Of a stretch of DNA of 64,000 nucleotides, positions 9,938-34,222 are shown piece by piece (the first letter of the stretch is position 1; each line of letters begins with the position of its first letter). The notes under the pieces are model-generated. The model was given only the letters and a program-made list of their open reading frames with translations, was not told the origin of the DNA and ran no database searches. The stretch is from Gammaproteobacteria bacterium (lineage in GTDB: Bacteria; Pseudomonadota; Gammaproteobacteria; Steroidobacterales; Foliamicaceae): contig VXSK01000030.1 in assembly GCA_009838035.1 (NCBI GenBank), forward strand, positions 8,683 to 72,682, written 5' to 3'. A program made the position numbers and the translations under genes.

Positions 9938-10105
9938 AATCCCCTGCGCCAATGCCGTCAGTCCCGCACAAGTAGTGTAACTCCCCCTCGATTACTTACC
10001 CAAAATCGCAGTTGAATTGTCATTAGCTAAAATCAAGAGGCGGGGCTCTATCGCGTTCGGTTTCACGGCTGACCGCGAGGTCACTCTGACAAATGGGGGC
10101 AAATC

Positions 10106-16671: not shown

Positions 16672-17667
16672 ATGATCATGCGTTTTCCGATTGTTGCCTC
16701 CCTGGCACTCGCGCTTGCACTGCCCGTTCAGGCGCAAACCTTCGGCAAGGCGGAACTGGAGAAACATCTTGCGCTGATCATGGAGTGGTGGCCCGGCGAA
16801 TACGATAATCACGAACAGATCGTCCGTCAGTCCGGCGGAGGATTTGCGGTTCCCATCTACGAGCCCGTTTTCCGCATTCATTCCCACTACGTTCGCCTGG
16901 ATCTGCCGGAACTGGGCGAGAACGTTCTCTACGTTGAGGAGTACCTCAACAACGACCCCTCCAACATCTCGCGCATCCGCGTCTATGCGCTTTCCGTCGA
17001 TGAGGAGGAACAGGCGGTGAGGGTAAAACTCCACGCTTTCAGTGACGGCCATGACCGCATGATCGGCGCCAGGCTCGATCCGGACCGGCTGGCAGCTATC
17101 GAAGCGGACGAGTTGCGCCCGTTTTCGGACGCATGCGATGTCTATATGCGATTCGACGGCGGCCAGTTCTCGGGCGGAATGAAACGGGAATCCTGCGGCG
17201 ACGAGGCCTGGTTCGAGTATCAGGTGGTGCTTGGCCCGAACCACTACTGGACTCGCGACCGGCAGATCAGCCGGGAGACGGGCGAGGTAACCTGGAACGA
17301 GACCGGGGGCGACCGGTACGACTGGATTCAGGCTACCAGGGCCCGCTGGTTCATCTGCACGGTCAACTACAACCTCGACGGCGACATGCTGAATACGGAG
17401 TTCCTCACCGAAATCGAACTTCACGATCAGGGCGGCTCGGCCGACATCGACTGGCCCGACGGCCGCACGCTGGAGTTCCAACTGCATACCCGTGAATTCG
17501 CCTCGCCGTCGGACCGTGTCTTCCCGTTGTTCCGCGTCCACGAAAAAGGAAACCATGTGCCCATCGCCTATGCCTGGGCGGTGGACGACGCCGACCGCTT
17601 CGGCATCAACCTGGGCTGGTTCTACGCGTTATGCCGGGCAAAGGAGCAGGGCGCGCCCCGTCCCTGA
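16672..17667 (+). CDS. exported protein with CpcT/CpeT-like (DUF1001) N-terminal signature; function unknown
   Basis: 331 aa. Signal peptide MIMRFPIVASLALALALPVQAQ. The motif EWWPGEYDNHEQ resembles the W-x-G-x-[FY]-x-N-x2-Q signature of the CpcT family. The assignment is from memory only. Confidence 0.5.
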   Translation: MIMRFPIVASLALALALPVQAQTFGKAELEKHLALIMEWWPGEYDNHEQIVRQSGGGFAVPIYEPVFRIHSHYVRLDLPELGENVLYVEEYLNNDPSNISRIRVYALSVDEEEQAVRVKLHAFSDGHDRMIGARLDPDRLAAIEADELRPFSDACDVYMRFDGGQFSGGMKRESCGDEAWFEYQVVLGPNHYWTRDRQISRETGEVTWNETGGDRYDWIQATRARWFICTVNYNLDGDMLNTEFLTEIELHDQGGSADIDWPDGRTLEFQLHTREFASPSDRVFPLFRVHEKGNHVPIAYAWAVDDADRFGINLGWFYALCRAKEQGAPRP

Positions 17668-17774
17668 TCACGGCGCTCGCTGGCTGATGCGCCGAATACA
17701 GCTATAATTTTTTTCCGACAGGCGCCGCTGGGGTAAGGCGCTTTTTCCATACAAGTCACAGGGGACTTGCCTTT

Positions 17775-20328: not shown

Positions 20329-23300
20329 ATGGCGACGCGCAAATCATCTTCTTCGGCCCGACCTGCCGTATCCGAAGTTCCCGGAACGGAATATCCCGGA
20401 TCCGGCGAACCGATCGCCGTGGTGGGCATGGCCTGCCGTTTTCCGGGCGCGCTGGATATTGGTTCCTTTTGGCAGCTGCTCAAGGATGGCGGCAACTCCA
20501 TAAGCGAATGGGTCCCTGGTTCGGGGCACGAACGCTTCAGCCAACTCTTTCCCGACGAGGCGGTGCGTAGCGAAGGCTGCCGCTTCGGCGCATTTGTTGA
20601 CGACATCGACCAGTTCGACGACTCGTTCTTCCGCATATCTCCGGTCGAAGCATCCCTGCTGGATCCGCAGCAGCGGATGATGCTGGAGACGAGCTGGCAG
20701 GCGCTCGAGGATGCCGGCATCGACCCCGACCGGCTCAGGGAGAGCCGAACCGGCGTCTATACCGGGATCAGCAACGACGAGTATCGAATGCTGGTCGTGG
20801 ACTCGAGCAAGCCCGCCGAAGCGGCCTCTTGCCTCTACGCCTTGAGCGGAACCAACCTGAACGGCGCCGCCGGCCGTGTTTCCTTCGTGCTGGGACTGAT
20901 GGGTCCGGCGAAGGCGGTTGACGCTGCCTGCGCCTCATCGCTGGTGTCGATACATGATGCGGTGGCCGATCTGCAGCAGGGCAGGGCGGACCTGGCCATT
21001 GCGGGCGGGGTGCAGGCGATCCTGAACGGCCGGATTTACGAATTGCGCGCCGACGCGATGATGCTGTCCCCCGAGGGGCAGTGCAAGACCTTCGATGCTT
21101 CGGCCGACGGCTATGTTCGCGGCGAAGGCTGCGGCGTCGTTATTCTGAAGCGGCTGAGCGAAGCGGAGGCGGACGGCGACCGGATCTGGGGTGTCATCCG
21201 CGGCTCTGCTGTGAACCACGGCGGCGCCAGCGTCGGCCTGACGGTCCCCAACACGCCGGCGCTGGAGAGGGTGATCGAAGAGGCCCTGTCGCAGGCAGGC
21301 GTCCAGGCTCTGGACGTCGATTACCTGGAAGCGCATGGAACCGGGACCACGGTCGGCGACCCGATCGAAATCGACGCCGTGGCTGCCGTCTACGGCCGGT
21401 CGCGCAAGCCCGACAATCCACTGCTGATCGGTTCGGTAAAGACCAACGTGGGCCACCTGGAGTCGGCGGCGGGGGTGGCGGGGCTGATCAAGGCCGTGCT
21501 GGTCGTGAATCAGGGCGTGATCCCGAAACACCTGCATTTGCGGGACCCCAATCCACGCGTTGACTGGGAAAGCCTGCCGCTGAAGATCACGACGGAAATG
21601 CAGGACTGGCCGGGCAATGGAAGCCGGCCGCGCCTGGCGGGCGTGAACTCCTTCGGGATTTCCGGCACCAATGCTCATCTTGTGGTGGAAGAACACCGGA
21701 GCCCGAACGGAAAGGGCACAGGAGGTCGCGACGGCCTCGCCCCCGGATTGACACGCGACATTGCCGATGTAGCCGGCCCCGCAAACGCGGTTGCCGTTTC
21801 GATGCCCGCAGGCGTTTCGAACCTGGCGGTCCCGGAAGAGCGGCCCACTTCGCGCCGCTCGCGGCTTCTGCCGCTCTCGGCCAAGTCTTCCGCCGCGCTT
21901 GGAGAACTCGCGGCGCGCTACCTGGATTGGATTGCGGAAAGGGAAAACGAGTTTTCTCCCGTCAATGCGGCCCCGGATCCGTTGCTTTCGGACATGGCCT
22001 GGACCGCGAGCGTGGGACGAAGCCACTTCGATGTTCGCGAAGGCGTCGTTTTTAAGGGCGCGGAATCCCTGCGGTCGCGACTGGAAGAGGTGGCCCAGGC
22101 TGATGAGAGACCGGCTGCGCGCGAATCGGCCGCGGTTGCCTTCGCCTACACGGGCCAGGGGAGCCAGTGGACCGGGATGGGGCTTGCGCTCTACGAGAGC
22201 GAGCCGGTTGCGAGGGCGGTATTCGACCGTTGCGAGGCGGTATTCGTCGAGGAGCGGGGCGCTTCCCTTCTGGATCTGATGTTCGGCCGCGATGGCGCGC
22301 AGGGGGACCTTGCCGACACGGCATGGGAGCAGCCGGCGCTCTATGCGCTGGAGTGCGCGCTTACGGCTCTCTGGGCAAGTATCGGTGTTCGGCCGGCCGT
22401 TGTGCTGGGTCACAGCGTCGGCGAACTGGCGGCCGCGCAGGCGGCGGGCGTGTTCAGCCTGGAGGATGGCATGCGCCTTGCCGAAGCGCGGGGCTCGCTG
22501 CTGTCGGCGACCGAACCGGGCGCCATGGCGGCGGTCTTTGCTCCGGCCGAAACGGTTGCCGCCGAGGTGGAATCCGCCAATGCCGCTTCCGGGGGCGTCG
22601 GCGTGAACATTTCCGCCTACAACGGCACGCACCAGGTGGTCAGCGGCGCGATAGCGGAAATCGAAGAGATATCCGGGCGTCTGGAGTCCCAGGGCGTGCG
22701 CGTGCGGCGCCTGAATACCTCCAGGGCCTTTCACAGCGCCCTGATGGAGTCGGCGCTGGATGACCTGGAAGCGGTGCTGGACCGCCTGTCGGTCGAGGAG
22801 CCTGTCGTGAATTTCGTCAGTAACCTGACCGGCCGCGCGCTCGGGGTGGACGAGCGGCTGGACGGCGCCTACTGGAGGCGGCACGCTCGCGAAGCCGTAG
22901 CGTTCGTGGATGGCGTTGACACGCTGGACGGCCTGGGAGTGGACCTGGTCATCGAGATCGGGCCGCGGTCGGTTCTGTCGTCAATGACCTTGTCGGCATG
23001 GCCGGAGTCGTCCAAGTCGCCCGTGCCGGCTGTCTTGGCAAGCCTGCGGCCGCCCGCGGACGGAGCATCACGAACGTCCGACGGCGGGGAATTCACGGAA
23101 GCGGCCGCAGCCGCCTATCAGGCTGGACTGCCGATTCAGTTTTCCGGACTGTTCGCGGGCGAGAACCGGCGCAGGATTTCCCTGCCGGGTTATCCGTTTC
23201 AACGACGCCGTCACTGGCTGGAGGCTCCGGCGAGACGACGAGGGAGCGCAGGCCATCCACTGCTCGGCGTGCGCCGCGAATCGGCGGGCGGCGAAATAAC

Positions 23301-26300
23301 ATTCGAAACCGAACTGTTCCCCTCCGACCCACCCTGGATGAGCGACCATCGGGTGTTCGGCCGCGTTGTGGCGCCGGGCGCGGTATATGGAGCGATGGTG
23401 GCATCGGCAGCGCTTGCGGAGGGCAGCCGGTCGGTGATCGTTGAAGACATGCAACTGCACAATGCGCTCGTGTTCGAGGAGGAGAACGAGGAAGACCCGA
23501 CCGCAGCCGCGAGGACAGTGCAGCTGGCGATCGATGAATCCGGGTCGGCGGCGTCCCGGGCCGTTCGAATCTTCAGCAAAGGCAACGAAGGTGTCTGGAG
23601 CCAGCATATCGAGGGCCGGCTGGCGTCAGCCTCGTCGGCGCCCGGCGAAGGCGAGTCGATCGATCTCGAACAACTCAGGGCCGATCTGAAGGCGGCGGAC
23701 GTTGACGCGTACTACCGGCACAGGGCAAGCACCGGCGTCAATCTCGGACCGTTCTTCCGCACGCTGAAGCAGGTCTGGTCCGGCCCCGGCGAGGCTCTGG
23801 GCGAGGTGTCGCTGCCGGAGGCTTTCGAACGGCACGGCTTGGACGTTCACCCTCTGGTGCTGGACGGTTGCTTCCAGGTGTTCGGCACCGCCCGAAAGTT
23901 CGCGGAGTCCGAGGGCGCCTCCGCCTATCTTCCCTTCGGTTGGGAGCAACTGTGGCTGGCGGGGCGGTTGCCGGACCGCGTGTACTGCCACGTGCGCCTG
24001 AGCGAGGCGTCGCGCGACGCGGATGCGGACCCCGACGCAATGCCGGAGACCCTGAACGGCGAACTTCGAATCTACGACCCGGACGGGTCTCTGCTGGGGC
24101 GACTTAGCGGTTACTCGATCAAGCGGGCGACGCGCGCGGCCCTGCTTTCGGCCATCGAAGGCGTAAACGATCTCCTGTACGAGGTGGAGTGGCGCGAGCA
24201 GCCGCTTCCCCCCGGGATCCTTTCCGCCGATTTCTTTCCCCGGCCCGCGGCTGTCGCAGCCGGCACGCAATTGTTCGCCGATTACCTGCGGGAGGCGGGA
24301 GTCGATCCCGAGGGCCGGAACGATCTGCTTGAGGACCTCGAACAATGGTCGCGTTCGCGCGCGCTTGCCACGCTCGAGGAATTGGGATGGCAGAGGAAGA
24401 CGGGCGACGTCGTCGACTCCGATCAATTGCGGCAGGAAATGGATGTCTTGCCCGAGCACTCGCGCCTGTTCCGCCGCATGTTCGAAATGCTCGCCAGGTC
24501 CGGGGTACTGGAAGAGACCGATGCGGGTTTCCGCGTGCTCCTGGGACCCGAAGATCCCCTGCCCGCCGAGATGCCCAGGGATCTGGATGAATGGGTCGAG
24601 CGGATGAGGGGAACCTATGCCCACGGTCTCACCGAAGTTGGCCTGTTCGAGCGGTCGGGCAAGGCCCTTGGTGACGTGCTTCGCGGCAAGGAGGATGCGC
24701 TTACCCTGCTGTTCAGCAGCGGCGAGCCGACGGCGGCCGACCTGTACCTGAAGGCGCCGGTGGCGCGCGCTGCAAACAGCCTGCTGGGCGAGGCGGTGCG
24801 TGCCCTGGTGGCCGCACTGCCCGGCGATCGGCGCCTGCGGGTGATCGAAGTCGGGGCGGGCACCGGCTCCGCCACCGCTTCGGTGTTGCCGGAGCTTCCC
24901 GAGGGCCGTTTCGATTACGTCTATACCGACATTTCCGCGGGATTCTTTGCCGAAGCGGAAGCGAGGTTCGGCGACGCCGGCGGTTGTATCCGGTATGCGC
25001 CGCTGGACATCGAGAAGGACCCGGTCGCGCAAGGTTACGACCCTCACGGTTACGACCTGATTATTGCCTCGAATGTTCTGCATGCAACGAGATATCTGGA
25101 AGATACACTGACACATTGCCGGGAACTTCTCGCTCCATCGGGGCAGTTGGTCGCGCTGGAGAACCTCACCGGGCTGGGCTGGATGGACCTGACCTTCGGG
25201 CAGCTGGACGGCTGGTGGCGGTTCGCCGACGATTACCGTCCCCACCACGCATTGGCCACTCCGGAGATCTGGAGGCAGGCGCTGGGCGATGCCGGTTTCG
25301 AGGCAGTGGAAGTGCTGGGCGTCAACGAGAACGACCCGAACCGGACCCTGGACAAGGGCGTCATCGTGGCCCAGGGACCCGCGAAGGTGAGCGAACCTCG
25401 GGGCGTTTGGGTGCTGGCCGCGGACGCAGGGGGAGTCGGGGCGGAACTGGCGAGCGACCTGGCCGCGCGCAATCAAACGGTGATGCTGGCCGGCGCGGAT
25501 GCGCCGGCGAACGGGATTCAACCGGGGAACGGACCGGGTGTGTTCGAGACTGCCGTGGAACCGGACGACCGGGATTCCTGGCGCTCGCTGATCGAGAATC
25601 TTCCCGGCGATGTGCCGCTCGGTGGAATCGTGCATCTCGCCGCACTCGACGGCAATGGTGAGCGGGCCCAGACCGAAGCCATGGCGGATGACGTGCGACG
25701 GGCGGGCGCAAGTGCGCTGGCGCTGGTCCAGGGCCTGATCGATTCGGACACGATGCCGGACAGGGGCCTGTGGTTCGTGACCCGCGGCGCGCAGGTCCTG
25801 GAGCGCGAGCGGGGCGGGGAACCCGCGGGCTCTGTACTCTGGGGTTTCGGCAAGGGCGTCGCTCGCGAAGCGCCGCACCTCAAGCCCAGGATGCTCGACC
25901 TCGATCCGGCCCCGGGCGCCGCGTCCGATCTCGTCAATGAACTCATGTATCCGGACCCGGAGGATCACATTGCGCATCGTCGCGGCCGCCGGCTTACGGC
26001 CCGTCTGGTTCGGGAGGGCGCCGGCGCAGAGCGGCTGGAACTGCCCGAGGAGCCGGACTGGGTGCTGGCGCCCGACCCGGACGGCGTTTTCGACAAACCC
26101 TTTGTTCAGACCTTGCCGGAGCGGCCCCTGGAGCCGGACGAGGTCCGGGTGCAGGTAGAGGCCGCCGGGCTCAACTTCTGGGACGTATTCCGGTCGCTCG
26201 GATTCATCGAGGAGGGCATGCTCGGCCGCGAAATGTGCGGTTACGTGCTGGACGTCGGCTCCGACGTGGCCCGCGTGAAGGCCGGCGACCATGTGGTTGG

Positions 26301-29300
26301 AATGGGCTTCGGCGCGTTCGGTGGGGAAATGATCACGCACGGGGAACTCGTCGCTCCTGCGCCGGACGGATTTACGGTGAGCGAACTTGCCACGATCCCC
26401 AGCGCCTACGTTTCGGCTGCGCTGTCCTTCGAGTTCACGGGACTGGAGGCTGGCGAACGGGTCCTGATTCACGCGGGCGCGGGCGGCGTGGGCCTGGCGG
26501 CCATCCAGTGGGTGCAGGCCGCAGGAGCAGAAGTGTTTGCCACCGCCAGTGCGCCCAAGCGGGACTATCTCCGGTCGCTGGGCGTGGAGCACGTCTTTGA
26601 CAGCCGCACGACGGCGTTCGGCGAAGAAATTCTCAAGGCCACCGGCGGCGAGGGCGTCGATGTGGTGCTGAACAGCCTGACGAGCGAAGGCTACATCGAT
26701 GCCAGTCTGGCGTGCCTCAAGCAGGGCGGCCGTTTCGTCGAGATGGCCCGGCGCGACATCCTGAGCGAGGAGGAGATGGCGGCCGTGCGGCCCGACGTGC
26801 CCTACCACATCCTTGAGCTGGACGTATTGAAGAAGACTGAGCCCGCCAGGGTGGGCAAGGTCCTGCGGGGCGTGATGGCGCGCGTTGCGGCGGGCGAGCT
26901 CAAGCCGATCATTCACAGCCGCTGGCCGCTGGCCGAAGCGGGCGCCGCGCTGAGCTTCATGCGCTCGGCCCGGCACCTCGGAAAGATCGTGGCGACAAAC
27001 CCGCCGGTCAAGGACGGCCGCTTGCGGCCGGATCGTACCTACCTGGTGACGGGCGGACTGGGAGGAATCGGTTGCGCGGTGGCGGACTGGCTCGCCGAAA
27101 GGGGCGCGGGGACGATCGTGCTGAACGGACGGCGCGCGCCCGACGAAGCCGCCGAGAAGACCATCGGCGCGCTCAGGGACCGCGGCGTGCGGGTGGAAGT
27201 GGAATTGGCGGATGTTACCGATACGGCGGCGATCGATCGGATGCTGGCCCGCATGGATGACGAACTGGCGCCCCTTGCGGGCGTGATCCACAGCGTGGGC
27301 GTGCTGTCGGACGGCGCGCTCACCAACCAGAGCTGGGAGCGCTTCGAGCAGGTGCTTTGGCCAAAGGTGCTGGGCGCCTGGCATTTGCATCGAGCGACGG
27401 TGGACCGCGATCTGGACATGTTCGTATTGTTCTCGAGCCGCGTGGGCGTGATGGGCAATCCCGGCCAGGCCAACCACGCCGCCGCCAATGCCTTCCTGGA
27501 TCAGCTTGCGGGCCATCGCCGGGCGCTGGGTCTCGCAGGCCAGGCCATCGCCTGGGGCGCCTGGTCGGAGATCGGCGAGGCGGCGGAGCAGCGCGAGCGC
27601 ATAGACAGCCAGCGCTCGGCGCTGGGCGGGCGCTGGTTCACTCCGCAACAGGGCATCAGGGCATTCGATCGTCTGGTGCGCCAGGACGCCACCCATTCCG
27701 TGGTGATGTCCATGGACTGGTCGGTCTTCGCGGAGGCCGTTGAAGAACCGCCGATCCTGGTGGAGGATCTGTTGTCCGCCGCTACCGAGGCGAAGGACGA
27801 TCCCGCGGCAGGGCTGGGCGATCTGCTGTCCATGCTGAGGAGCTCACCCGCTGCGGCTCATGAAGACCTGCTGGCTTCTTTTCTGCAAAACGAAGTGCAG
27901 GCAGTACTGAGACTGCCGTCGGCGCCAGCGCCCACGGTCGGGTTCTTCGATCTCGGGATGGACTCGCTGATGGCGGTGGAACTCCGCAACCGGGTGAACC
28001 GGGCGTTCGCCGGGGAGTACGTGGCGTCCAACACCGCGGTTTTCGACTATCCGGACATCACCCAATTTGCGGCTCATGTAGCCGAACAGCTCGGCGACCT
28101 GGGGACCGCACCCGCGCCCGCTCCGGCGGCTGCCTCGGCACCCGCTCCCGCACCCGCGCCTCAAGCCGAGCCGCAGCCGGAACCTCGCCGGCGAGCGGAG
28201 CCGGATCCGCAACCCGCAGCCACGGCGCCGCGCGAAGAAGAAGGCATTGCCATTGTGGGCATGGCCTGCCGTTTTCCGGGGGCGCCGGACCTTGCGGCAT
28301 TCTGGCGCCAGCTCGAAGGCGGCGGCACCGGAATTACCGACGGCCGAGCGGGTTCAGGTCCCTGGTCCGATAGCGCGCGAGATTTGCCGCGCGAGTTCGC
28401 TGCCTACCGCAAGGGCGGGTTCGTGGACGAGATCGACAAGTTCGACGCGAGGTTCTTCCGGATTGCGCCGATCGAGGCGCGCATGCTGGACCCGCGCCAG
28501 CGAATGCTGCTGGAGACGAGTTGGCAGGCCCTGGAAGATGCCGGAATGGACTCGGACCGCTTGCGGGGAAGCCGCACCGGGATCTACGTCGGACTGGCTT
28601 CGAGCGAGTACCGGGATCTGATGAAGTCCGGCGAAAGAGGCGTGAGCTACCTGGGCACCGCCACCAGCATGACGGTGGGCCGGGTTGCCTATCATCTGGG
28701 TCTGGAAGGCCCGGCGGTTCCGGTGGAACTGAACTGCGCGTCGTCGCTGATTGCCGCGCACCAGGCGGTTATGGCCCTGCGCTATGGCGAAGTGGACCAG
28801 GCCCTCGTGGGTGGCGTGAACACGCTGCTTTCGCCCGCCGTGACCCGGGAGATGGCGGAGCTGGGCATGTTGTCGCGCCACGGTCAATGCAAGGCCTTCG
28901 ATGCTTCCGCGGACGGTTTTGTAAGAAGCGAAGGCTGCGGCATGCTGGTTCTGAAACGGCTCGATGAAGCCGAGGCCGACGGCGACCGCATCTGGGGCGT
29001 GATCCGCGGCTCGGCGGTCAACCAAAACGGGGCCAGCGCAGGTCCCACAACGCCCAATGGCCAGGCCCAGCAACGGGTCATCGAGACGGCGCTTTCCAGG
29101 GCGAACATGGCGCCGTCGGCGGTGGACTACCTGGAGGCGCATGGAGCCGGCTCGGCCCTGGGAGACCCGATCGAAGTGCAGGCCGCGGCGGCGGTCTATG
29201 GAAGGGGACGCGAGTCCGACAGGCCGCTGCTGATCGGCTCGGTGAAAGCGAACATCGGCCATCTCGAAGCGGCTGCCGGCGTGGCCGGCCTGATCAAGGC

Positions 29301-30099
29301 CGTGCTGGCGATGCAGCGCGGGATGATTCCCCGCCAGTTGCACTTCAACACCCCGAATCCGAACCTCGAATGGGACGAGCTTCCGGTACGTGTCGTTTCA
29401 GGCGCGACGCCCTGGCCCGGCCATTCCGAACGGCCGCCCAGGTCGGGCGTGAGCGCATTCGGTATATCGGGAACGAACGCACATGTCGTGCTGGAGGGGC
29501 ACGCCGCCAACGGGACGGGTCCCGGCGGCGCGATCGATCCCGCGGGCGCCCCGATACGCGTGTCCGTTTCCGAGTCGGAGCGTTCGGGGGACCTCGAGCA
29601 GTCGCGCGGCGAAGGTCCCGACGACCGGATCGCCAGGATGCTTCCGCTTTCGGGCAAGTCGGAGGACGCCCTTCGGCAGTTGTCGGAGCGGTATCTCGAA
29701 TGGCTCGACCGGCGTTCGCAAGAGATCTCTTCCGACGTGGACATGGATGCCCTTCTGGCCGACATGGCATGGACGGCGGCCGTGGGACGGACTCATTTCG
29801 ATTGCCGGGCCGGCCTGGTATTCGAGGATGCCGAATCGTTGCGGCAGGAACTCAAGTCGCTCGCAAACGGCGGCGACCGGGGAGGACAACAAGCCGTTGG
29901 GGCGTCGCCGGCAACCGGAGTCGAGGCGGAAAACGCTCCCGACTCCGGGAATGGCCGCTCGATTGTCGAGACGGCTGCGAAGGCGTACGAGGACGGGCTG
30001 GCCGTTTCCTTCGAGAGCCTCTTTGCCGGAGAAGAGCGCCGCCGCATTTCGCTGCCGGGTTATCCTTTCCAGCGCCGAAGCTACTGGATCAATTCCTAG
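20329..30099 (+). CDS. type I polyketide synthase, KS-AT-DH-cMT-psiKR-ER-KR-ACP-KS-(AT-less linker)
   Basis: 3256 aa. Approximate domain coordinates read from motifs:
- KS1 20413-21693: Cys codon 20929 in DAACASSL; HGTGT; GHLESAAG.
- AT 22138-22990: GHSVG with Ser codon 22414; RAFHS at 22723.
- DH 23254-24140: HPLLG, HRVFGRVVAPG, LDGCFQ.
- C-methyltransferase about 24640-25375: VIEVGAGTGS.
- psiKR about 25390-26000.
- ER about 26100-27000: LIHAGAGGVGLAAIQ.
- KR about 27036-27620: YLVTGGLGGIGCAV.
- ACP 27880-28095: LGMDSLMAVEL, Ser codon 27964.
- Ala/Pro linker 28096-28236.
- KS2 28245-29500: Cys codon 28735; HGAGS; GHLEAAAG.
- KS-AT linker remnant with post-AT motif YPFQRRSYW, 29620-30096. 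Confidence 0.97.
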   Translation: MATRKSSSSARPAVSEVPGTEYPGSGEPIAVVGMACRFPGALDIGSFWQLLKDGGNSISEWVPGSGHERFSQLFPDEAVRSEGCRFGAFVDDIDQFDDSFFRISPVEASLLDPQQRMMLETSWQALEDAGIDPDRLRESRTGVYTGISNDEYRMLVVDSSKPAEAASCLYALSGTNLNGAAGRVSFVLGLMGPAKAVDAACASSLVSIHDAVADLQQGRADLAIAGGVQAILNGRIYELRADAMMLSPEGQCKTFDASADGYVRGEGCGVVILKRLSEAEADGDRIWGVIRGSAVNHGGASVGLTVPNTPALERVIEEALSQAGVQALDVDYLEAHGTGTTVGDPIEIDAVAAVYGRSRKPDNPLLIGSVKTNVGHLESAAGVAGLIKAVLVVNQGVIPKHLHLRDPNPRVDWESLPLKITTEMQDWPGNGSRPRLAGVNSFGISGTNAHLVVEEHRSPNGKGTGGRDGLAPGLTRDIADVAGPANAVAVSMPAGVSNLAVPEERPTSRRSRLLPLSAKSSAALGELAARYLDWIAERENEFSPVNAAPDPLLSDMAWTASVGRSHFDVREGVVFKGAESLRSRLEEVAQADERPAARESAAVAFAYTGQGSQWTGMGLALYESEPVARAVFDRCEAVFVEERGASLLDLMFGRDGAQGDLADTAWEQPALYALECALTALWASIGVRPAVVLGHSVGELAAAQAAGVFSLEDGMRLAEARGSLLSATEPGAMAAVFAPAETVAAEVESANAASGGVGVNISAYNGTHQVVSGAIAEIEEISGRLESQGVRVRRLNTSRAFHSALMESALDDLEAVLDRLSVEEPVVNFVSNLTGRALGVDERLDGAYWRRHAREAVAFVDGVDTLDGLGVDLVIEIGPRSVLSSMTLSAWPESSKSPVPAVLASLRPPADGASRTSDGGEFTEAAAAAYQAGLPIQFSGLFAGENRRRISLPGYPFQRRRHWLEAPARRRGSAGHPLLGVRRESAGGEITFETELFPSDPPWMSDHRVFGRVVAPGAVYGAMVASAALAEGSRSVIVEDMQLHNALVFEEENEEDPTAAARTVQLAIDESGSAASRAVRIFSKGNEGVWSQHIEGRLASASSAPGEGESIDLEQLRADLKAADVDAYYRHRASTGVNLGPFFRTLKQVWSGPGEALGEVSLPEAFERHGLDVHPLVLDGCFQVFGTARKFAESEGASAYLPFGWEQLWLAGRLPDRVYCHVRLSEASRDADADPDAMPETLNGELRIYDPDGSLLGRLSGYSIKRATRAALLSAIEGVNDLLYEVEWREQPLPPGILSADFFPRPAAVAAGTQLFADYLREAGVDPEGRNDLLEDLEQWSRSRALATLEELGWQRKTGDVVDSDQLRQEMDVLPEHSRLFRRMFEMLARSGVLEETDAGFRVLLGPEDPLPAEMPRDLDEWVERMRGTYAHGLTEVGLFERSGKALGDVLRGKEDALTLLFSSGEPTAADLYLKAPVARAANSLLGEAVRALVAALPGDRRLRVIEVGAGTGSATASVLPELPEGRFDYVYTDISAGFFAEAEARFGDAGGCIRYAPLDIEKDPVAQGYDPHGYDLIIASNVLHATRYLEDTLTHCRELLAPSGQLVALENLTGLGWMDLTFGQLDGWWRFADDYRPHHALATPEIWRQALGDAGFEAVEVLGVNENDPNRTLDKGVIVAQGPAKVSEPRGVWVLAADAGGVGAELASDLAARNQTVMLAGADAPANGIQPGNGPGVFETAVEPDDRDSWRSLIENLPGDVPLGGIVHLAALDGNGERAQTEAMADDVRRAGASALALVQGLIDSDTMPDRGLWFVTRGAQVLERERGGEPAGSVLWGFGKGVAREAPHLKPRMLDLDPAPGAASDLVNELMYPDPEDHIAHRRGRRLTARLVREGAGAERLELPEEPDWVLAPDPDGVFDKPFVQTLPERPLEPDEVRVQVEAAGLNFWDVFRSLGFIEEGMLGREMCGYVLDVGSDVARVKAGDHVVGMGFGAFGGEMITHGELVAPAPDGFTVSELATIPSAYVSAALSFEFTGLEAGERVLIHAGAGGVGLAAIQWVQAAGAEVFATASAPKRDYLRSLGVEHVFDSRTTAFGEEILKATGGEGVDVVLNSLTSEGYIDASLACLKQGGRFVEMARRDILSEEEMAAVRPDVPYHILELDVLKKTEPARVGKVLRGVMARVAAGELKPIIHSRWPLAEAGAALSFMRSARHLGKIVATNPPVKDGRLRPDRTYLVTGGLGGIGCAVADWLAERGAGTIVLNGRRAPDEAAEKTIGALRDRGVRVEVELADVTDTAAIDRMLARMDDELAPLAGVIHSVGVLSDGALTNQSWERFEQVLWPKVLGAWHLHRATVDRDLDMFVLFSSRVGVMGNPGQANHAAANAFLDQLAGHRRALGLAGQAIAWGAWSEIGEAAEQRERIDSQRSALGGRWFTPQQGIRAFDRLVRQDATHSVVMSMDWSVFAEAVEEPPILVEDLLSAATEAKDDPAAGLGDLLSMLRSSPAAAHEDLLASFLQNEVQAVLRLPSAPAPTVGFFDLGMDSLMAVELRNRVNRAFAGEYVASNTAVFDYPDITQFAAHVAEQLGDLGTAPAPAPAAASAPAPAPAPQAEPQPEPRRRAEPDPQPAATAPREEEGIAIVGMACRFPGAPDLAAFWRQLEGGGTGITDGRAGSGPWSDSARDLPREFAAYRKGGFVDEIDKFDARFFRIAPIEARMLDPRQRMLLETSWQALEDAGMDSDRLRGSRTGIYVGLASSEYRDLMKSGERGVSYLGTATSMTVGRVAYHLGLEGPAVPVELNCASSLIAAHQAVMALRYGEVDQALVGGVNTLLSPAVTREMAELGMLSRHGQCKAFDASADGFVRSEGCGMLVLKRLDEAEADGDRIWGVIRGSAVNQNGASAGPTTPNGQAQQRVIETALSRANMAPSAVDYLEAHGAGSALGDPIEVQAAAAVYGRGRESDRPLLIGSVKANIGHLEAAAGVAGLIKAVLAMQRGMIPRQLHFNTPNPNLEWDELPVRVVSGATPWPGHSERPPRSGVSAFGISGTNAHVVLEGHAANGTGPGGAIDPAGAPIRVSVSESERSGDLEQSRGEGPDDRIARMLPLSGKSEDALRQLSERYLEWLDRRSQEISSDVDMDALLADMAWTAAVGRTHFDCRAGLVFEDAESLRQELKSLANGGDRGGQQAVGASPATGVEAENAPDSGNGRSIVETAAKAYEDGLAVSFESLFAGEERRRISLPGYPFQRRSYWINS

Positions 30100-30176
30100 T
30101 ACCGCGCGGGTTGTGAGAATTCGAGTATGATTGCGCCCGCATCCGAAACAACTTTTGATTAGGGGGACCTATCACC

Positions 30177-30422
30177 ATGGCTTCAACTGCGGAAAGAATC
30201 AAGGCGCTGGTAGACGACAACATCGAGGTGGACGGCCAGGCGCTGGATATTCCGGACGACATGAACTTCAGCCTCGCGGCTGCCGGCGTTTCGTCCATGG
30301 ACCTGGTTGCTCTGGGCAAGCTGATTGCCAGCGAGTTCGGCATCACCTTTACGCTGGACGATTGCGCCGCACTCGACAACCTCACCAAGGTTGTTGCATT
30401 CGTAGACAGCAAGGCTGCGTAG
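30177..30422 (+). CDS. stand-alone acyl carrier protein
   Basis: 81 aa, acidic, four-helix ACP pattern with a phosphopantetheine Ser candidate in AAGVSSMDLVALGKLI. RBS AGGGGGA is 10 nt upstream. Confidence 0.85.
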   Translation: MASTAERIKALVDDNIEVDGQALDIPDDMNFSLAAAGVSSMDLVALGKLIASEFGITFTLDDCAALDNLTKVVAFVDSKAA

Positions 30423-30499: not shown

Positions 30500-31432
30500 T
30501 TGCCTGAGCAAGCCGACGGACTGACGCGCCTGTACAAGTCGCGCTGGGCGCTGCCCAGGCCGCATTCCACCCACAATGTGCAAGTGGACGATGACACGGT
30601 CATCGTCCTCAGGCGCCATGGCAATCCGGATGGCGCCCGGCTCATACTGACTCACGGCAACGGCCTTGCGATCGACTTGTACTATCCCTTCTGGTCGCTG
30701 CTTACCGATGAGTTCGATATCGTCGTCCATGACCTGAGGAACCACGGCTGGAATGAGGTCAGCGCGCCGGACAGGCACAACATGCCCACGCTGGCCGACG
30801 ATCAGGACCGCATTCTGGAAGCGGTCAACTCGACCTACGGAGAGAAACCCGCGGTTGGGATATTCCATTCCCTGGCGGCGCTGGCCGCGCTGCTGTCGCC
30901 CGCAAAGGGCCGGGACTACGCGGGCCTGGTGCTGTTCGATCCGCCGCTTTGCAAGGCCGGCCGCAGCTACTTCGACTTCGATGCCGCGGCGACGCAGAAC
31001 GCCGCCCAGGTCCGCCGGCGCACCGAGCACTTCGCCACGCTGCGGGAGTTTGACGAGTTGCTTGCGATCGTTCCCCTGTACCGGCAGGCGCTGCCCGGCG
31101 TCCACAGGCTGCTGGCCGACACGACGCTGCGTCGGCGCTCCGGCGGCGACGGCTACGAATTGCGCTGCCCGCGCGACTATGAAGCGCAGATCGTCGAATA
31201 TGCCTCGGTCTTTGCGGTGACCATCAATTTCGACTCATTCCATTGTCCGATCAAGGTGATCGGCGCGGACCCCACACTGCCCTACTCGTACCTGCCGAGC
31301 ATGGACCTGAGCCACATCCTGAGCGTGGACTACGACTTTATTCCGGACGCCACCCATTTCCTGCAGGTCGAAAAGCCGGACGAGTGCGTGGCCTCGATGC
31401 GCGGCTTCCTCAACGAGATTTCATTCGACTGA
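30500..31432 (+). CDS. alpha/beta-fold hydrolase (candidate thioesterase / release enzyme)
   Basis: 310 aa from a TTG start (start uncertain). HGNG oxyanion region, nucleophile elbow GIFHSLAA, Asp in LFDPP, His in DATHF. Confidence 0.75.
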   Translation: MPEQADGLTRLYKSRWALPRPHSTHNVQVDDDTVIVLRRHGNPDGARLILTHGNGLAIDLYYPFWSLLTDEFDIVVHDLRNHGWNEVSAPDRHNMPTLADDQDRILEAVNSTYGEKPAVGIFHSLAALAALLSPAKGRDYAGLVLFDPPLCKAGRSYFDFDAAATQNAAQVRRRTEHFATLREFDELLAIVPLYRQALPGVHRLLADTTLRRRSGGDGYELRCPRDYEAQIVEYASVFAVTINFDSFHCPIKVIGADPTLPYSYLPSMDLSHILSVDYDFIPDATHFLQVEKPDECVASMRGFLNEISFD

Positions 31433-32119
31433 AACTTCGTGCGCGACGGCCGCGGCGAATTCGGGGTTACCGATATTCTCCAGCCGCCAGCGCACCTCGG
31501 GCAGGTGCGGAAAGCGAAACTCGCACAGCCGCTTTCCATTGCACATGGCCGCAGGGATCTCGAATTCGGAAATGTGAAGCTGGAAGCCGGTGCCCAGCGC
31601 CTTGACCAGCGCTTCCTTCATCGTCCACAGGCGAAAGAAAAGCTGCCGCCTGCGGTTCGCGCCGGCGCCGGCCAGCCGCGACTGTTCCGCCGGAGTGAGC
31701 GTCTCGCCGATAAGCACGTCCAGGTTGCGGCGAGCGCTTCGCGGTTCCACGTCCACGCCCAGCCTGCCGCGCCCGGCCAGCGCAATCAGCCCATGGCGTC
31801 CGCTGTGACTGACGCTGAAACTGACGGAAGCCGGCTGCCCGCGCACGATCGCCGCCGGCTTCCCATGCTCCCCTTCCTCGAAAGTCAATTCCTCGTTCGG
31901 GCAAGCCAGCCGTTGGCAGAGGATCGCCCGAAGCGCGCCCCTGCATAGGGCAAACTCGCGCTGCGGCGCATCAGCGCGGAAGCGGCTCCAGCGGGCCTGC
32001 TCCTCTTCATCCAGCAACCGGAACGCCTGCCGCTCCCGCTCGGACCGAGGTGAAAGATCAACGTGTACGACATCCGCGTCCCCGGCCGCGCGAAAGGGAC
32101 GCCACCAGCGATTACTCAA
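31421..32119 (-). CDS. Sfp-type 4'-phosphopantetheinyl transferase
   Basis: Motifs GKPAA, FSVSHSG, GVDVE and WTMKEALVKALG. There is no ATG in the relevant region. TTG at 32119 gives 232 aa with the usual N-terminus (...VVHVDL...LLDEEEQARWSRF). The longer ORF to 32665 would run across the divergent gene. The 3' end overlaps the hydrolase gene by 12 nt. Confidence 0.8.
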   Translation of the reverse strand: MSNRWWRPFRAAGDADVVHVDLSPRSERERQAFRLLDEEEQARWSRFRADAPQREFALCRGALRAILCQRLACPNEELTFEEGEHGKPAAIVRGQPASVSFSVSHSGRHGLIALAGRGRLGVDVEPRSARRNLDVLIGETLTPAEQSRLAGAGANRRRQLFFRLWTMKEALVKALGTGFQLHISEFEIPAAMCNGKRLCEFRFPHLPEVRWRLENIGNPEFAAAVAHEVSVE

Positions 32120-32122
32120 TAT

Positions 32123-32139
32123 AATTGGCCGCGCCAATT
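32123..32139. promoter_or_regulatory. perfect 7-3-7 palindrome in the divergent PPTase / SnoaL promoter region (candidate operator)
   Basis: AATTGGC-cgc-GCCAATT lies between the PPTase start (32119) and the SnoaL gene start (32186). Confidence 0.3.
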
Positions 32140-32185: not shown

Positions 32186-33184
32186 ATGAACGAGATCGCG
32201 AACGCCAAGGCCCTGGTATTGGGCTATTTCGACGAATTCGAGAAAGCCGGTGTGGACGGCATCGAGTCCGTCATAGCTCGCCGCAGCGCCGGGAACCTGC
32301 GCTTTCGGGGCGTGCATCCCTTCAACGAGATTCAGGGTGCGGGCGACATCGCCGAGAAGGTCTGGCGTCCCTTGCGGGAGGCGTTTCCCCGCATGCAGCG
32401 GCGCCAGGAGATTTTCATGGCGGGTCCCAACTGGATCGACGGGACCCTGTGGGTGTCCAGCATGGGGAAGTTTTTCGGCTTGTTCGACAATAACTGGCTG
32501 GGCATTCCTTCCACCGGCAAGATCGCCATGCTTCCGTATTGCGAGTTCTTTCGAATCGACGACGGCAGGATCGCGGAAACCGCGCTTTTCTGCGACATCG
32601 TCAGCGTGATGCAGCAAGCGGGCCTGAACCCGCTGCCGATACAGACCGGCTCCGGCATTCTCCATCCGCCGCCGCGCACGCAGGACGGCCTGCTGTTCGA
32701 ACCCCAGGCAGAAGAGGAATCGAAAAAGACCCTGGAGCTGATCCTGCGCATGTGCGACGACCTGGTCGTCAAGGACGGATGGCAGTCGCCGAATTCATCG
32801 CTGGCTTCCACCTGGCACGACGACATGATCTGGTTCGGACCGGCCGGCATCGGTTCGACCTATACGATCGAGCGCTACCAGGTGCAGCACCAGGGTCCGT
32901 TCCGGGCCGGCCTGGACGACATCGTGTTCAACGGCCACGTCCTGGAGCACGCCGAGGGCTGCTACGGCGGCTGGTTCGGATGGGCCAACCTGAGCCTAAA
33001 GCAGGGCGACGGATTTATGGGCTTGCCGGCGTCCGAGCGGCCGACCGAGATGCGCGTGGTCGATATGTACCGGCGCGAGGGAGACAAGCTCGCGGAGAAC
33101 TGGGTATTCATCGACATGCTCCACTACCTACTGCCGCTGGGCGTGGACCTGCTCGAGCGTTGCCGCTCCATCACCCGCACCTGA
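32186..33184 (+). CDS. double SnoaL-like (NTF2-fold polyketide/ester cyclase-like) protein
   Basis: 332 aa. Two SnoaL-type halves each end with the signature G-x-F-x-G-[IL]-P-x-[TS]-[GE]-[KR]...[FM]-x-R-x-x-[DG]-G-[RK]-[IL]-x-E-x-W...D. The halves are WLGIPSTGKIAMLPYCEFFRIDDGRIAE and FMGLPASERPTEMRVVDMYRREGDKLAENWVFID. Confidence 0.75.
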   Translation: MNEIANAKALVLGYFDEFEKAGVDGIESVIARRSAGNLRFRGVHPFNEIQGAGDIAEKVWRPLREAFPRMQRRQEIFMAGPNWIDGTLWVSSMGKFFGLFDNNWLGIPSTGKIAMLPYCEFFRIDDGRIAETALFCDIVSVMQQAGLNPLPIQTGSGILHPPPRTQDGLLFEPQAEEESKKTLELILRMCDDLVVKDGWQSPNSSLASTWHDDMIWFGPAGIGSTYTIERYQVQHQGPFRAGLDDIVFNGHVLEHAEGCYGGWFGWANLSLKQGDGFMGLPASERPTEMRVVDMYRREGDKLAENWVFIDMLHYLLPLGVDLLERCRSITRT

Positions 33185-34222
33185 ATGCGCATCGCCACCG
33201 AAACCACGCTGCGCAACAAGCAGCGTTACGCAGAGCTTGTCGCCGACTACGCGGATTGCGACTCCGCCCGCATTCGTTCAGCCCTGAAGGAGTTCCTGCA
33301 TCCCGATGTGGCGGTGAATGTCGTGCAGCCGATCAACAGGGTGGCGGGCGCTCAACAGTTCCTTGAACGGGTGATGGAACCGCTTCTGCATTCCTTCCGG
33401 CACCTGCACCGGCGCAGCGACATGCTGTTCGGCGGCGAACACGAGGGCGCCGAGTGGGTGGTCAGCCACGGCCACTACATAGGCGAATTCGTCGACGACT
33501 GGCTGGGCATTCCCGCGAATGGCCAGCCCGTCTGGCTGCATTACGCGGAATTCCACCGGATGGAGGCGGGCCGTTCGGTCGAGTGCTACCTCTATATCGA
33601 CATGCTGGATTTCCTGCGGCAGCTGGGAAGATGGCCTCTTCCTGCCAGTGTCGGACATGAAGGGTTCGTTCCGGGGCCTGCGACGGGCGATGGAATGCTG
33701 CTGTCGGCACAGGATCCGGAACGGTCACGCCTGAGCCTCAAGACGGTCGAGGACATGCTCGCCGAACTCTGGACCGAAGAAGAGGGCTGGCGACCCTACT
33801 GGCACCGCAACATGTGCTGGTACGGCCCTTCCGGCTACGGCAGTTACTTCGGCCTGGAGGGCTTCTGCCGGTTTCAGCAACCCTACGAAGGGATCTTCGA
33901 GCCCGGCCGGTTCTCCAGCGCCTTCCGCAAGTCCGGCGATGCGCGACTCGACGGACAAGTCAAAGGGCATTACGCCCGTTTCGCCGACGGCGCGTACGTG
34001 GCTTGCGGAGGCTGGCCATCGCACGGGGGCTTCATGGTCCGCCCCTGGCTGGGCGTCGAGGGCAAGGGACAGATGTTCACCGTTCGCCTCTGCGACTTAT
34101 GGCGCAGAAGCGGTAACGTGCTGGTCGAAAACTGGGTGCTCATCGACCTGATCGACATGCTCCTGCAACTCGACTTCGACGTATTCCGCGAGGCCGGCAT
34201 CGAACTTCAGATCAGATCGTAG
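33185..34222 (+). CDS. double SnoaL-like (NTF2-fold cyclase-like) protein, paralog of the preceding gene
   Basis: 345 aa. The ATG directly abuts the upstream TGA. Motifs WLGIPANGQPVWLHYAEFHRMEAGRSVE and WLGVEGKGQMFTVRLCDLWRRSGNVLVENWVLID. Confidence 0.75.
   Translation: MRIATETTLRNKQRYAELVADYADCDSARIRSALKEFLHPDVAVNVVQPINRVAGAQQFLERVMEPLLHSFRHLHRRSDMLFGGEHEGAEWVVSHGHYIGEFVDDWLGIPANGQPVWLHYAEFHRMEAGRSVECYLYIDMLDFLRQLGRWPLPASVGHEGFVPGPATGDGMLLSAQDPERSRLSLKTVEDMLAELWTEEEGWRPYWHRNMCWYGPSGYGSYFGLEGFCRFQQPYEGIFEPGRFSSAFRKSGDARLDGQVKGHYARFADGAYVACGGWPSHGGFMVRPWLGVEGKGQMFTVRLCDLWRRSGNVLVENWVLIDLIDMLLQLDFDVFREAGIELQIRS

Follow-up and report, generated by a model that had tools for sequence, protein, structure and literature searches.

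How does a polyketide synthase (PKS) come to carry a second condensing domain with no acyltransferase (AT) of its own, and how might such a domain be supplied with an extender unit? The question is raised by a type I PKS gene in a 64,000-nucleotide stretch of DNA from a gammaproteobacterium of the family Foliamicaceae (contig VXSK01000030.1, positions 8,683 to 72,682, assembly GCA_009838035.1). This whole stretch is referred to below as the window. The gene encodes one complete module, then a second ketosynthase (KS2) with the linkers of an AT but no AT between them, and then it stops. The explanation favored here, to which a probability of about 0.75 is assigned as a whole, is that this is a PKS/fatty-acid synthase cluster of the Sup type, belonging to an uncultured bacterium that lives with sponges, in which the second AT (AT2) decayed and was then excised, and in which KS2 would be served in trans.

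A second module without an acyltransferase

The Pfam matches and the translation give the domain order KS1-AT1-DH-cMT-ER-KR-ACP1-KS2-flanking subdomain-junction-post-AT linker, in which KS stands for ketosynthase and ACP for acyl carrier protein. The parts that matter for the argument are the following, all on the + strand.

20329-30099, +: type I PKS gene (SupA-like), 3256 aa, one open reading frame (ORF) (translation, Pfam domains)
20407-21693, +: KS1, aa 27-455 (Pfam; Cys201, His336 and His376 checked)
22129-23073, +: AT1, aa 601-915, the sole AT of the PKS (Pfam PF00698 at aa 605-912)
23074-23226, +: post-AT1 linker, aa 916-966, ending ...LPGYPFQRRRHWLE (31/57 alignment with the last 57 aa of the PKS)
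27883-28080, +: ACP1, aa 2519-2584 (Pfam PP-binding)
28240-29499, +: KS2, aa 2638-3057 (Pfam; Cys2803, His2938 and His2978 intact)
29500-29868, +: KS2 flanking subdomain, the former KS-AT linker, aa 3058-3180 (Pfam RhiE-like_linker and CurL-like_PKS_C; AlphaFold2; Foldseek)
29869-29955, +: junction from the AT excision, aa 3181-3209, 29 low-complexity residues GGDRGGQQAVGASPATGVEAENAPDSGNG
29956-30096, +: post-AT2 linker, aa 3210-3256, ending ...LPGYPFQRRSYWINS (BLASTP, alignment, model), with the stop codon (30097-30099) directly after it

When the last 656 aa of the protein (aa 2601-3256) were compared with its first 1000 by BLASTP, the KS and the pre-AT linker aligned at 50% identity over 609 aa, and a second piece matched the two post-AT linkers (31/57, E 3e-16) while skipping aa 625-909 of module 1. 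About 300 aa of AT1 have no counterpart in module 2 in this comparison, and both ends of the junction align with the loops that border AT1. The only Pfam matches after KS2 are KAsynt_C_assoc, CurL-like_PKS_C and RhiE-like_linker, which extend to about aa 3181. A motif scan found no GxSxG in the tail after KS2, including the segment at 29.6-30.1 kb, and the GHSxG motif of the PKS occurs only in AT1 (Ser696). The stop codon comes immediately after the post-AT motif YPFQRRSYWINS. A preliminary description of this DNA had proposed that module 2 lacks the AT core between its linkers and that the protein ends right after the post-AT linker, and the BLASTP, Pfam and motif results agree with it; its estimate of about 35 low-complexity filler residues was near the actual 29.

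The remaining AT carries the motifs GHSVG (aa 694-698) and RAFHS. A phenylalanine in the xFHS motif marks malonyl-type ATs (PMC11775670), which indicates malonyl specificity for AT1, and therefore the methyl branch of the product should come from the cMT domain. In the KR domain, the motif GQANHAAAN (27472-27480) has a histidine where the catalytic tyrosine is expected. The same is true of the related synthases in genomes G004 and G021, so the substitution looks family-wide rather than a sign of local decay.

Stub-bearing relatives and the excision

The PKS was found in 8 of the 21 genomes of the genus that were searched. Six of these eight have the same AT-less end, with 87-95% identity across the whole KS2 tail, and one such assembly is a single-contig chromosome of 2.83 Mb. 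An assembly artefact was considered and rejected because the six other assemblies of the genus share this end with that of the window, making seven in agreement.

The PKS proteins of G004 and G021, by comparison, are 200-230 aa longer and hold a degenerate AT between the same two linkers. In this stub, the N-terminal half of the hydrolase core can be recognized, followed by the C-terminal part of the core. GHSxG is replaced by GSGAG or ADSHD, and the small subdomain, with the histidine of xAFHS, is gone. The nearest stub-bearing relative is P0113, encoded on a metagenome contig (L031) that is syntenic with the window and has the gene order CpeT-like, TonB receptor, PKS, permease, ACP, hydrolase, phosphopantetheinyl transferase (PPTase), two SnoaL pairs and SSF symporter. 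At the DNA level, window positions 29844-29976 occupy the place of L031 positions 16946-17750, an AT2 stub of about 805 bp, for a net loss of about 670 bp. The loss of an AT from module 2 is thus supported by relatives that still hold its remains, and it took place in two steps: an old, family-wide inactivation and truncation, and then a recent deletion of the stub in the lineage of the window.

Recombination may have turned the 3' end of the gene into a mosaic. Protein identity between the window and L031 is 85-96% in module 1 and falls to 59-81% in module 2, and the synonymous divergence (dS) of module 2 (28100-30096) is 1.15-1.3, about twice that of module 1 (0.45-0.8).

One further irregularity was seen in the genus. 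In G005 (L026), a metagenome-assembled genome (MAG) that is 66% complete, there is an in-frame gap of about 190 aa in module 1, corresponding roughly to window aa 530-697, and with it the last part of the KS1-AT1 linker and the GHS of AT1 are missing. A real gap would leave this PKS without any active AT, but a fault of the assembly is another possible cause.

The age of the duplication

The recurrence after KS2 of the linkers found on both sides of AT1 can also be read as the trace of a recent event, an internal duplication in this gene or genus followed by one clean excision of the AT. This was the reading of the preliminary description, which cited near-identical DNA stretches shared by KS1 and KS2. 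As written, the quoted pairs (20413-20450/28245-28282 and 21170-21215/28978-29023) are misaligned by 1-2 nt, with matches at only 13/38 and 13/46 positions. Once they are shifted, short stretches (IAIVGMACRFPGA, DGDRIWGVIRGSAVN) of roughly 85-89% identity do appear (hand count on the printed sequence), but they encode KS motifs that are universally conserved and are not traces of recent duplication or gene conversion. Across the domains, KS1 and KS2 are 66.6% identical in DNA over 1109 nt, a value to be expected of KS paralogues when the genome is GC-rich, and 50-56% identical in protein. Similarity between the two domains is in fact lower (56%) than that of KS2 to some KS domains of other PKSs (up to 63.5%), and the idea of a recent copy fails on this point.

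Phylogeny places the duplication much further back. In a tree of 107 KS domains, the KS1 and the KS2 of the family each form one clade, and the two clades are sisters (Shimodaira-Hasegawa-like approximate likelihood ratio test, SH-aLRT, 96). A tree of 57 KS domains gives the same sister clades with an ultrafast bootstrap (UFBoot) of 99 and an SH-aLRT of 94, and 200/200 bootstrap trees agree. These trees include 13-28 family members from several phyla, and their outgroups are the KS domains most similar to KS2 in the protein collection plus distant ones. Since the sister clades hold across the family, the duplication appears to be real but to lie at the family's base, before it spread across several phyla. 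Together with the stub-bearing intermediates, which point to a two-step loss, this leaves a recent local duplication very improbable. What survives of the preliminary account is the AT loss, along with a duplication that is ancient; its recent, local copy does not.

Selection and predicted structure

An alternative is that module 2 is a decaying, nonfunctional appendage and that the AT deletion is one step in its pseudogenization. The ratio of nonsynonymous to synonymous substitution rates (dN/dS) was measured within the AT-less clade, with the junction taken as aa 3187-3215 and the post-AT linker as aa 3216-3256. The junction stretch is nearly neutral (0.6-1.4), as this alternative would have it, and the loss of the adjoining permease gene from the window genome and the additional gap in AT1 of G005 can be counted in its favor. 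KS2, however, has a dN/dS of 0.08-0.13, the mark of strong purifying selection, and the post-AT linker one of 0.13-0.30. The flanking subdomain (0.34-0.57) is similar to the KS1-AT1 linker. Among the AT-less congeners, KS2 is 93-99% identical and the flanking subdomain about 80-89%, and the reading frame of the PKS is intact in seven species plus two further AT-less lineages. The positions of Cys2803, His2938 and His2978 are nearly invariant in the alignment, and with its Cys-His-His kept and a dN/dS of about 0.1, KS2 looks functional. Given these values and the confident fold prediction described next, progressive decay of module 2 is highly unlikely. Where the AT2 stub is retained, its dN/dS is 0.22-0.44, which marks it as under constraint without being essential.

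An AlphaFold2 model of aa 2636-3256, built on an alignment of 50 sequences, has a mean predicted local distance difference test (pLDDT) score of 87.5 and a predicted template modeling (pTM) score of 0.91; the uncertain parts are the junction and two loops. The junction is predicted to be disordered, with a pLDDT below 50 at model residues 550-572. The flanking subdomain is modeled as beta-alpha-alpha-beta-alpha, mostly at high pLDDT, and the loop just after KS2 is poorly modeled. The best whole-chain matches in Foldseek are KS plus flanking subdomain structures from trans-AT synthases (4NA1-3, 5E5N, 4QYR and 4TKT), with template modeling (TM) scores of 0.80-0.89 normalized by either length. 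By sequence, KS2 and its tail align end to end with the chains named "AT-less PKS" (4QYR, 4ZDN and 4TKT; 615-639 aa).

This agreement in fold and length would be expected if module 2 were a true trans-AT module that had been taken over from such a system and joined to a cis-AT one. Its ancestry argues otherwise: KS2 is sister to KS1 among cis-AT KS domains, with PksN-like KS domains distant, and its identity is 38-43% to cis-AT KS-AT didomains versus 31-35% to trans-AT KS domains. Relatives also hold an AT stub at the same place, and no trans-AT gene was found in the 96%-complete genome. An origin by acquisition is therefore hardly credible.

The free carrier and its candidate loaders

If KS2 condenses, its extender unit would be brought by a carrier outside the PKS. 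The genes just downstream supply a candidate, followed by two other likely partners.

30177-30422, +: free ACP (SupB-like), 81 aa (Pfam PP-binding; probable phosphopantetheine serine in GVSSMD)
30500-31432, +: alpha/beta hydrolase, 310 aa (Pfam Abhydrolase_6; also in L031, L075, L076 and congeners)
31421-32137, -: Sfp-type PPTase (Pfam ACPS and AASDHPPT_N; start uncertain)

The free ACP, the presumed partner of KS2, gave no BLASTP match to ACP1 and has weak matches to AcpP-type NCBIfam models. Its position beside the PKS is conserved in every lineage inspected apart from G004, in which tblastn found no free ACP. The hydrolase belongs with the PKS and the ACP to the conserved core and is presumed to be the release enzyme. 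The PPTase may start at a TTG at 32137 or 32119; its maximal ORF of 414 aa overlaps the next gene, and the L031 counterpart has 265 aa. Two double-SnoaL genes at 32186-34222 accompany the PKS in this genus only and are probably not part of the conserved core. A gene for an NCS2/xanthine-uracil permease (SupE-like) stands between the PKS and the ACP in L031 (17938-19668), G003, G005 and G021 and after the PKS in L076. The gene is absent from the corresponding interval of the window (30100-30176) and from G013, G016, G006 and G014, and the permease paralogues found elsewhere in the window genome are only 46-57% identical.

Which AT could load the free ACP was asked with a six-frame search for PF00698 in the 2.92-Mb genome, which is 96% complete. 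The only matches are AT1 and one free AT on another contig (C2; L002:1246-2286), and no dedicated free-standing trans-AT was found by this search, either in the cluster or in the 96%-complete genome. The free AT scores 241 bits with the fabD model, against a cut-off of 260.9, and carries GHSLG and GAFH. It is not in a fab operon; judging from their translations, its neighbors look like an aminotransferase and a MeaB/glyoxalase-like protein. Because the genome shows only these two ATs, the plausible and economical suggestion is that one of them, AT1 or the FabD-like enzyme, would load the free ACP in trans.

The repeated loss of the AT without the appearance of a dedicated trans-AT would also follow if KS2 did not elongate at all but had a transfer or off-loading role, in which it only handed the finished chain of ACP1 over to the free ACP or the hydrolase, with no need for malonate. 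The lack of reductive domains in module 2 and the constant retention of the hydrolase and the free ACP fit such a role. On the other hand, the first histidine is usually missing from the nonelongating KS0 domains of trans-AT PKSs, and KS2 keeps all three of its catalytic residues nearly invariant; AT1 and the FabD-like enzyme are, moreover, available as loaders. A nonelongating KS2 is accordingly considered unlikely, though it retains some weight.

Repeated deletion across the family

The search of the protein collection returned hundreds of proteins, of which 120 were listed. Among these, about 105 proteins of 3150-3470 aa belong to the PKS family, and they come from Gemmatimonadota, Nitrospira, Acidobacteriota, and delta- and gammaproteobacterial MAGs. 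Homologues of 3151-3468 aa carry the same Pfam set as the window PKS. Nearly all of the listed family members stop right after the post-AT motif (...YPFQRxxxW, plus or minus a few residues), and their C-terminal second KS has no cis ACP, thioesterase (TE) or R domain.

A full AT would give a span of about 525 aa from the KS to the end of the protein. In about 90 of the listed homologues, which come from several phyla, this span is 375-450 aa, and a dead AT2 stub of 165-240 aa is retained. Nearly all of these stub-bearing proteins lack the serine and histidine motifs of an AT (GHSxG and xAFHS). In the stub alignment, the small subdomain is lost and the serine positions are mutated to GQGIG, GCGAG, GSGAG or ADSHD. 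The stubs of P0066 and P0100, at least one of which is labeled Nitrospira, keep GHSLG at the serine position and have lost the small subdomain.

A further 24 sequences have a span of 203-225 aa and no AT whatever. They fall into three groups in which the deletion starts and ends at different residues: the clade of the window, the group P0060/72/78/82/95, which retains the first AT strand VAFAYTGQ, and P0093. Because the borders differ from group to group, the AT2 stub was deleted at least three times. Borders were used for this count because the FastTree KS trees are noisy, giving 4-5 changes of the AT-less state. The other two AT-less lineages lie in unrelated genomic contexts, but in both the PKS has an ACP (about 80 aa) and an Abhydrolase_6 protein (about 300 aa) as neighbors, and one also has the permease. 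No AT-less lineage has lost the KS, the flanking subdomain, the post-AT linker, the free ACP or the hydrolase.

The closest multimodular PKSs in the outgroup (L073:6573-8489; L070:3351-5480 and 8127-10274) also have modules with a span of 639-716 aa from the KS to the post-AT motif. The AT of these modules is missing or much shortened, and AT reduction may be general in this PKS clade.

A proposed history and its significance

In the favored explanation, the family was founded by duplication of a KS(-AT) unit. AT2 lost the small subdomain with its catalytic histidine, and in most members the catalytic serine as well, and a moderately constrained stub of about 200 aa persisted. The lineage of the window then lost this stub from the first AT strand through the last AT helix, which fused the two flanking loops. 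As for the present-day enzyme, module 1 is proposed to add a malonyl unit, C-methylate it and reduce it fully. KS2 would take the chain from ACP1 and condense it with malonate on the free 81-aa ACP, itself malonylated in trans by AT1 or the FabD-like enzyme. The alpha/beta hydrolase would release the product, or the acyl-ACP would move on to the enzymes of type II fatty-acid synthesis. Since trans loading is open to a discrete ACP, AT2 would be redundant, and its early inactivation and its repeated complete loss would both be accounted for.

Several points weigh against this explanation. The duplication is read from the KS tree, because by raw identity KS2 is nearer to some KS domains of other PKSs (58-63.5%) than to KS1 (56%), and a tree of AT1, AT2 stubs and outgroup ATs gave no resolution. 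In BLAST searches, the AT2 stubs are somewhat nearer to the AT1 of the family (58-77% over about 110-140 aa) than to other ATs, which was not relied on. Recombination may blur the passage from stub to deletion, in view of the doubled dS of module 2 relative to P0113, and a third AT could lie in the missing 4% of the genome. The label "Sup" is absent from the source names of ten family clusters in the protein collection, which are generic. Finally, what the PKS makes, how often module 1 iterates, which AT loads the free ACP and what the hydrolase does are all matters of inference.

Taken more broadly, the Sup family may be a natural, replicated conversion of a cis-AT module to an AT-less one, with a long-held dead stub, at least three clean excisions, no trans-AT gained, and an ACP served by a neighboring AT or by FabD; this wider proposal is tentative, with odds a little short of even. 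If it is true, the excision borders are deletion points tested by evolution that could be used to engineer AT-less modules, and the family illustrates one route from cis-AT ancestors to a trans-AT-like architecture. The occurrence of stub-bearing and stub-free alleles at the same locus in one genus, plus two other excisions, marks the AT remnant as dispensable, and the stub-free alleles mark the KS, the flanking subdomain and the post-AT linker as not dispensable. They thereby offer natural domain borders for removal of the AT from a cis-AT module. In sponge microbiomes, the genes of Sup synthases rank with the most abundant of all PKS genes; if loading must be in trans, the models for the second KS and the free ACP become narrower.

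Comparison with known systems

The closest comparison by sequence is with the KS-AT didomains of cis-AT synthases (CurL, 4MZ0; DEBS module 5, 2HG4; DEBS module 3, 2QO3). With these, KS2 and its tail share the highest identity (38-43%), the lowest root-mean-square deviation over KS and linker, and the post-AT motif LPxYPFQRxRxW. They differ in that about 300 aa of AT are missing in the window, such that about half of the didomain chains is covered (TMt about 0.5).

In layout, the likeness is to the KS plus flanking subdomain of trans-AT synthases, such as KS2 of PksJ from the bacillaene pathway (4NA1-4NA3) and KS3 of MgsE from the isomigrastatin pathway (4QYR). Both have a KS, a small alpha/beta subdomain and no AT, along with a C-terminal stretch that runs back along the KS, and a "remnant of the KS-AT linker region" is typical of trans-AT KS domains (PMC11775670). 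The window KS2, however, is of cis-AT ancestry, with relatives that keep the stub; its genome has no dedicated trans-acting AT; and its carrier stands alone as a small protein instead of forming part of the module that follows. The window PKS is thus not a trans-AT PKS, since it has no dedicated AT and a KS of cis-AT descent, and only the AT-less KS layout is common to both.

For the proposed loading step, a parallel is found in the cross-talk of FabD in type II PKS and fatty-acid synthase systems, in which the housekeeping malonyl-CoA:ACP transacylase can malonylate a discrete carrier without an AT of its own. Unlike in those systems, the condensing enzyme in the window is a domain of a type I megasynthase, and AT1 is an equally plausible loader.

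The system that the window resembles as a whole is the Sup PKS. The Sup cluster, SupA-SupE, was reportedly described by Fieseler et al. (2007, AEM 73:2144) and Hochmuth et al. (2010). SupA is taken here to consist of one C-methylating, fully reducing module and a second KS, with no cis ACP or TE and with a degenerate AT0, and the gene letters other than SupE are likewise assumed. The relatives come almost entirely from MAGs and metagenomes of sponges, their isolate and contig names (COS, RHO, SB, CO; MKWU, LXNI/LXNJ) being presumably those of sponge-microbiome studies. On this architecture, the gene neighborhood and these names, the window cluster fits the Sup PKS, a system known by description. 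The Sup PKS is cited in PMC3908369, PMC4245539 and PMC9864124. According to PMC4245539 and PMC3908369, Sup ("sponge symbiont ubiquitous") PKSs are small, monomodular and extremely abundant in high-microbial-abundance sponges; the former gives mid-chain methyl-branched fatty acids as the proposed product, and the latter lists SupE as a permease.

The Sup PKS and the window PKS both have a single KS-AT-DH-cMT-ER-KR-ACP module and then a second KS on one polypeptide of about 3200-3500 aa, and both seem to have an adjoining discrete ACP, hydrolase and PPTase, with a permease as well in congeners, as in SupE. The differences are that the dead AT stub found after KS2 in most family members is wholly absent in the window, that the window cluster has no permease gene, and that two double-SnoaL genes are attached in the window genus. 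The window PKS is a stub-free variant of a known, uncharacterized family and not a new kind of system.

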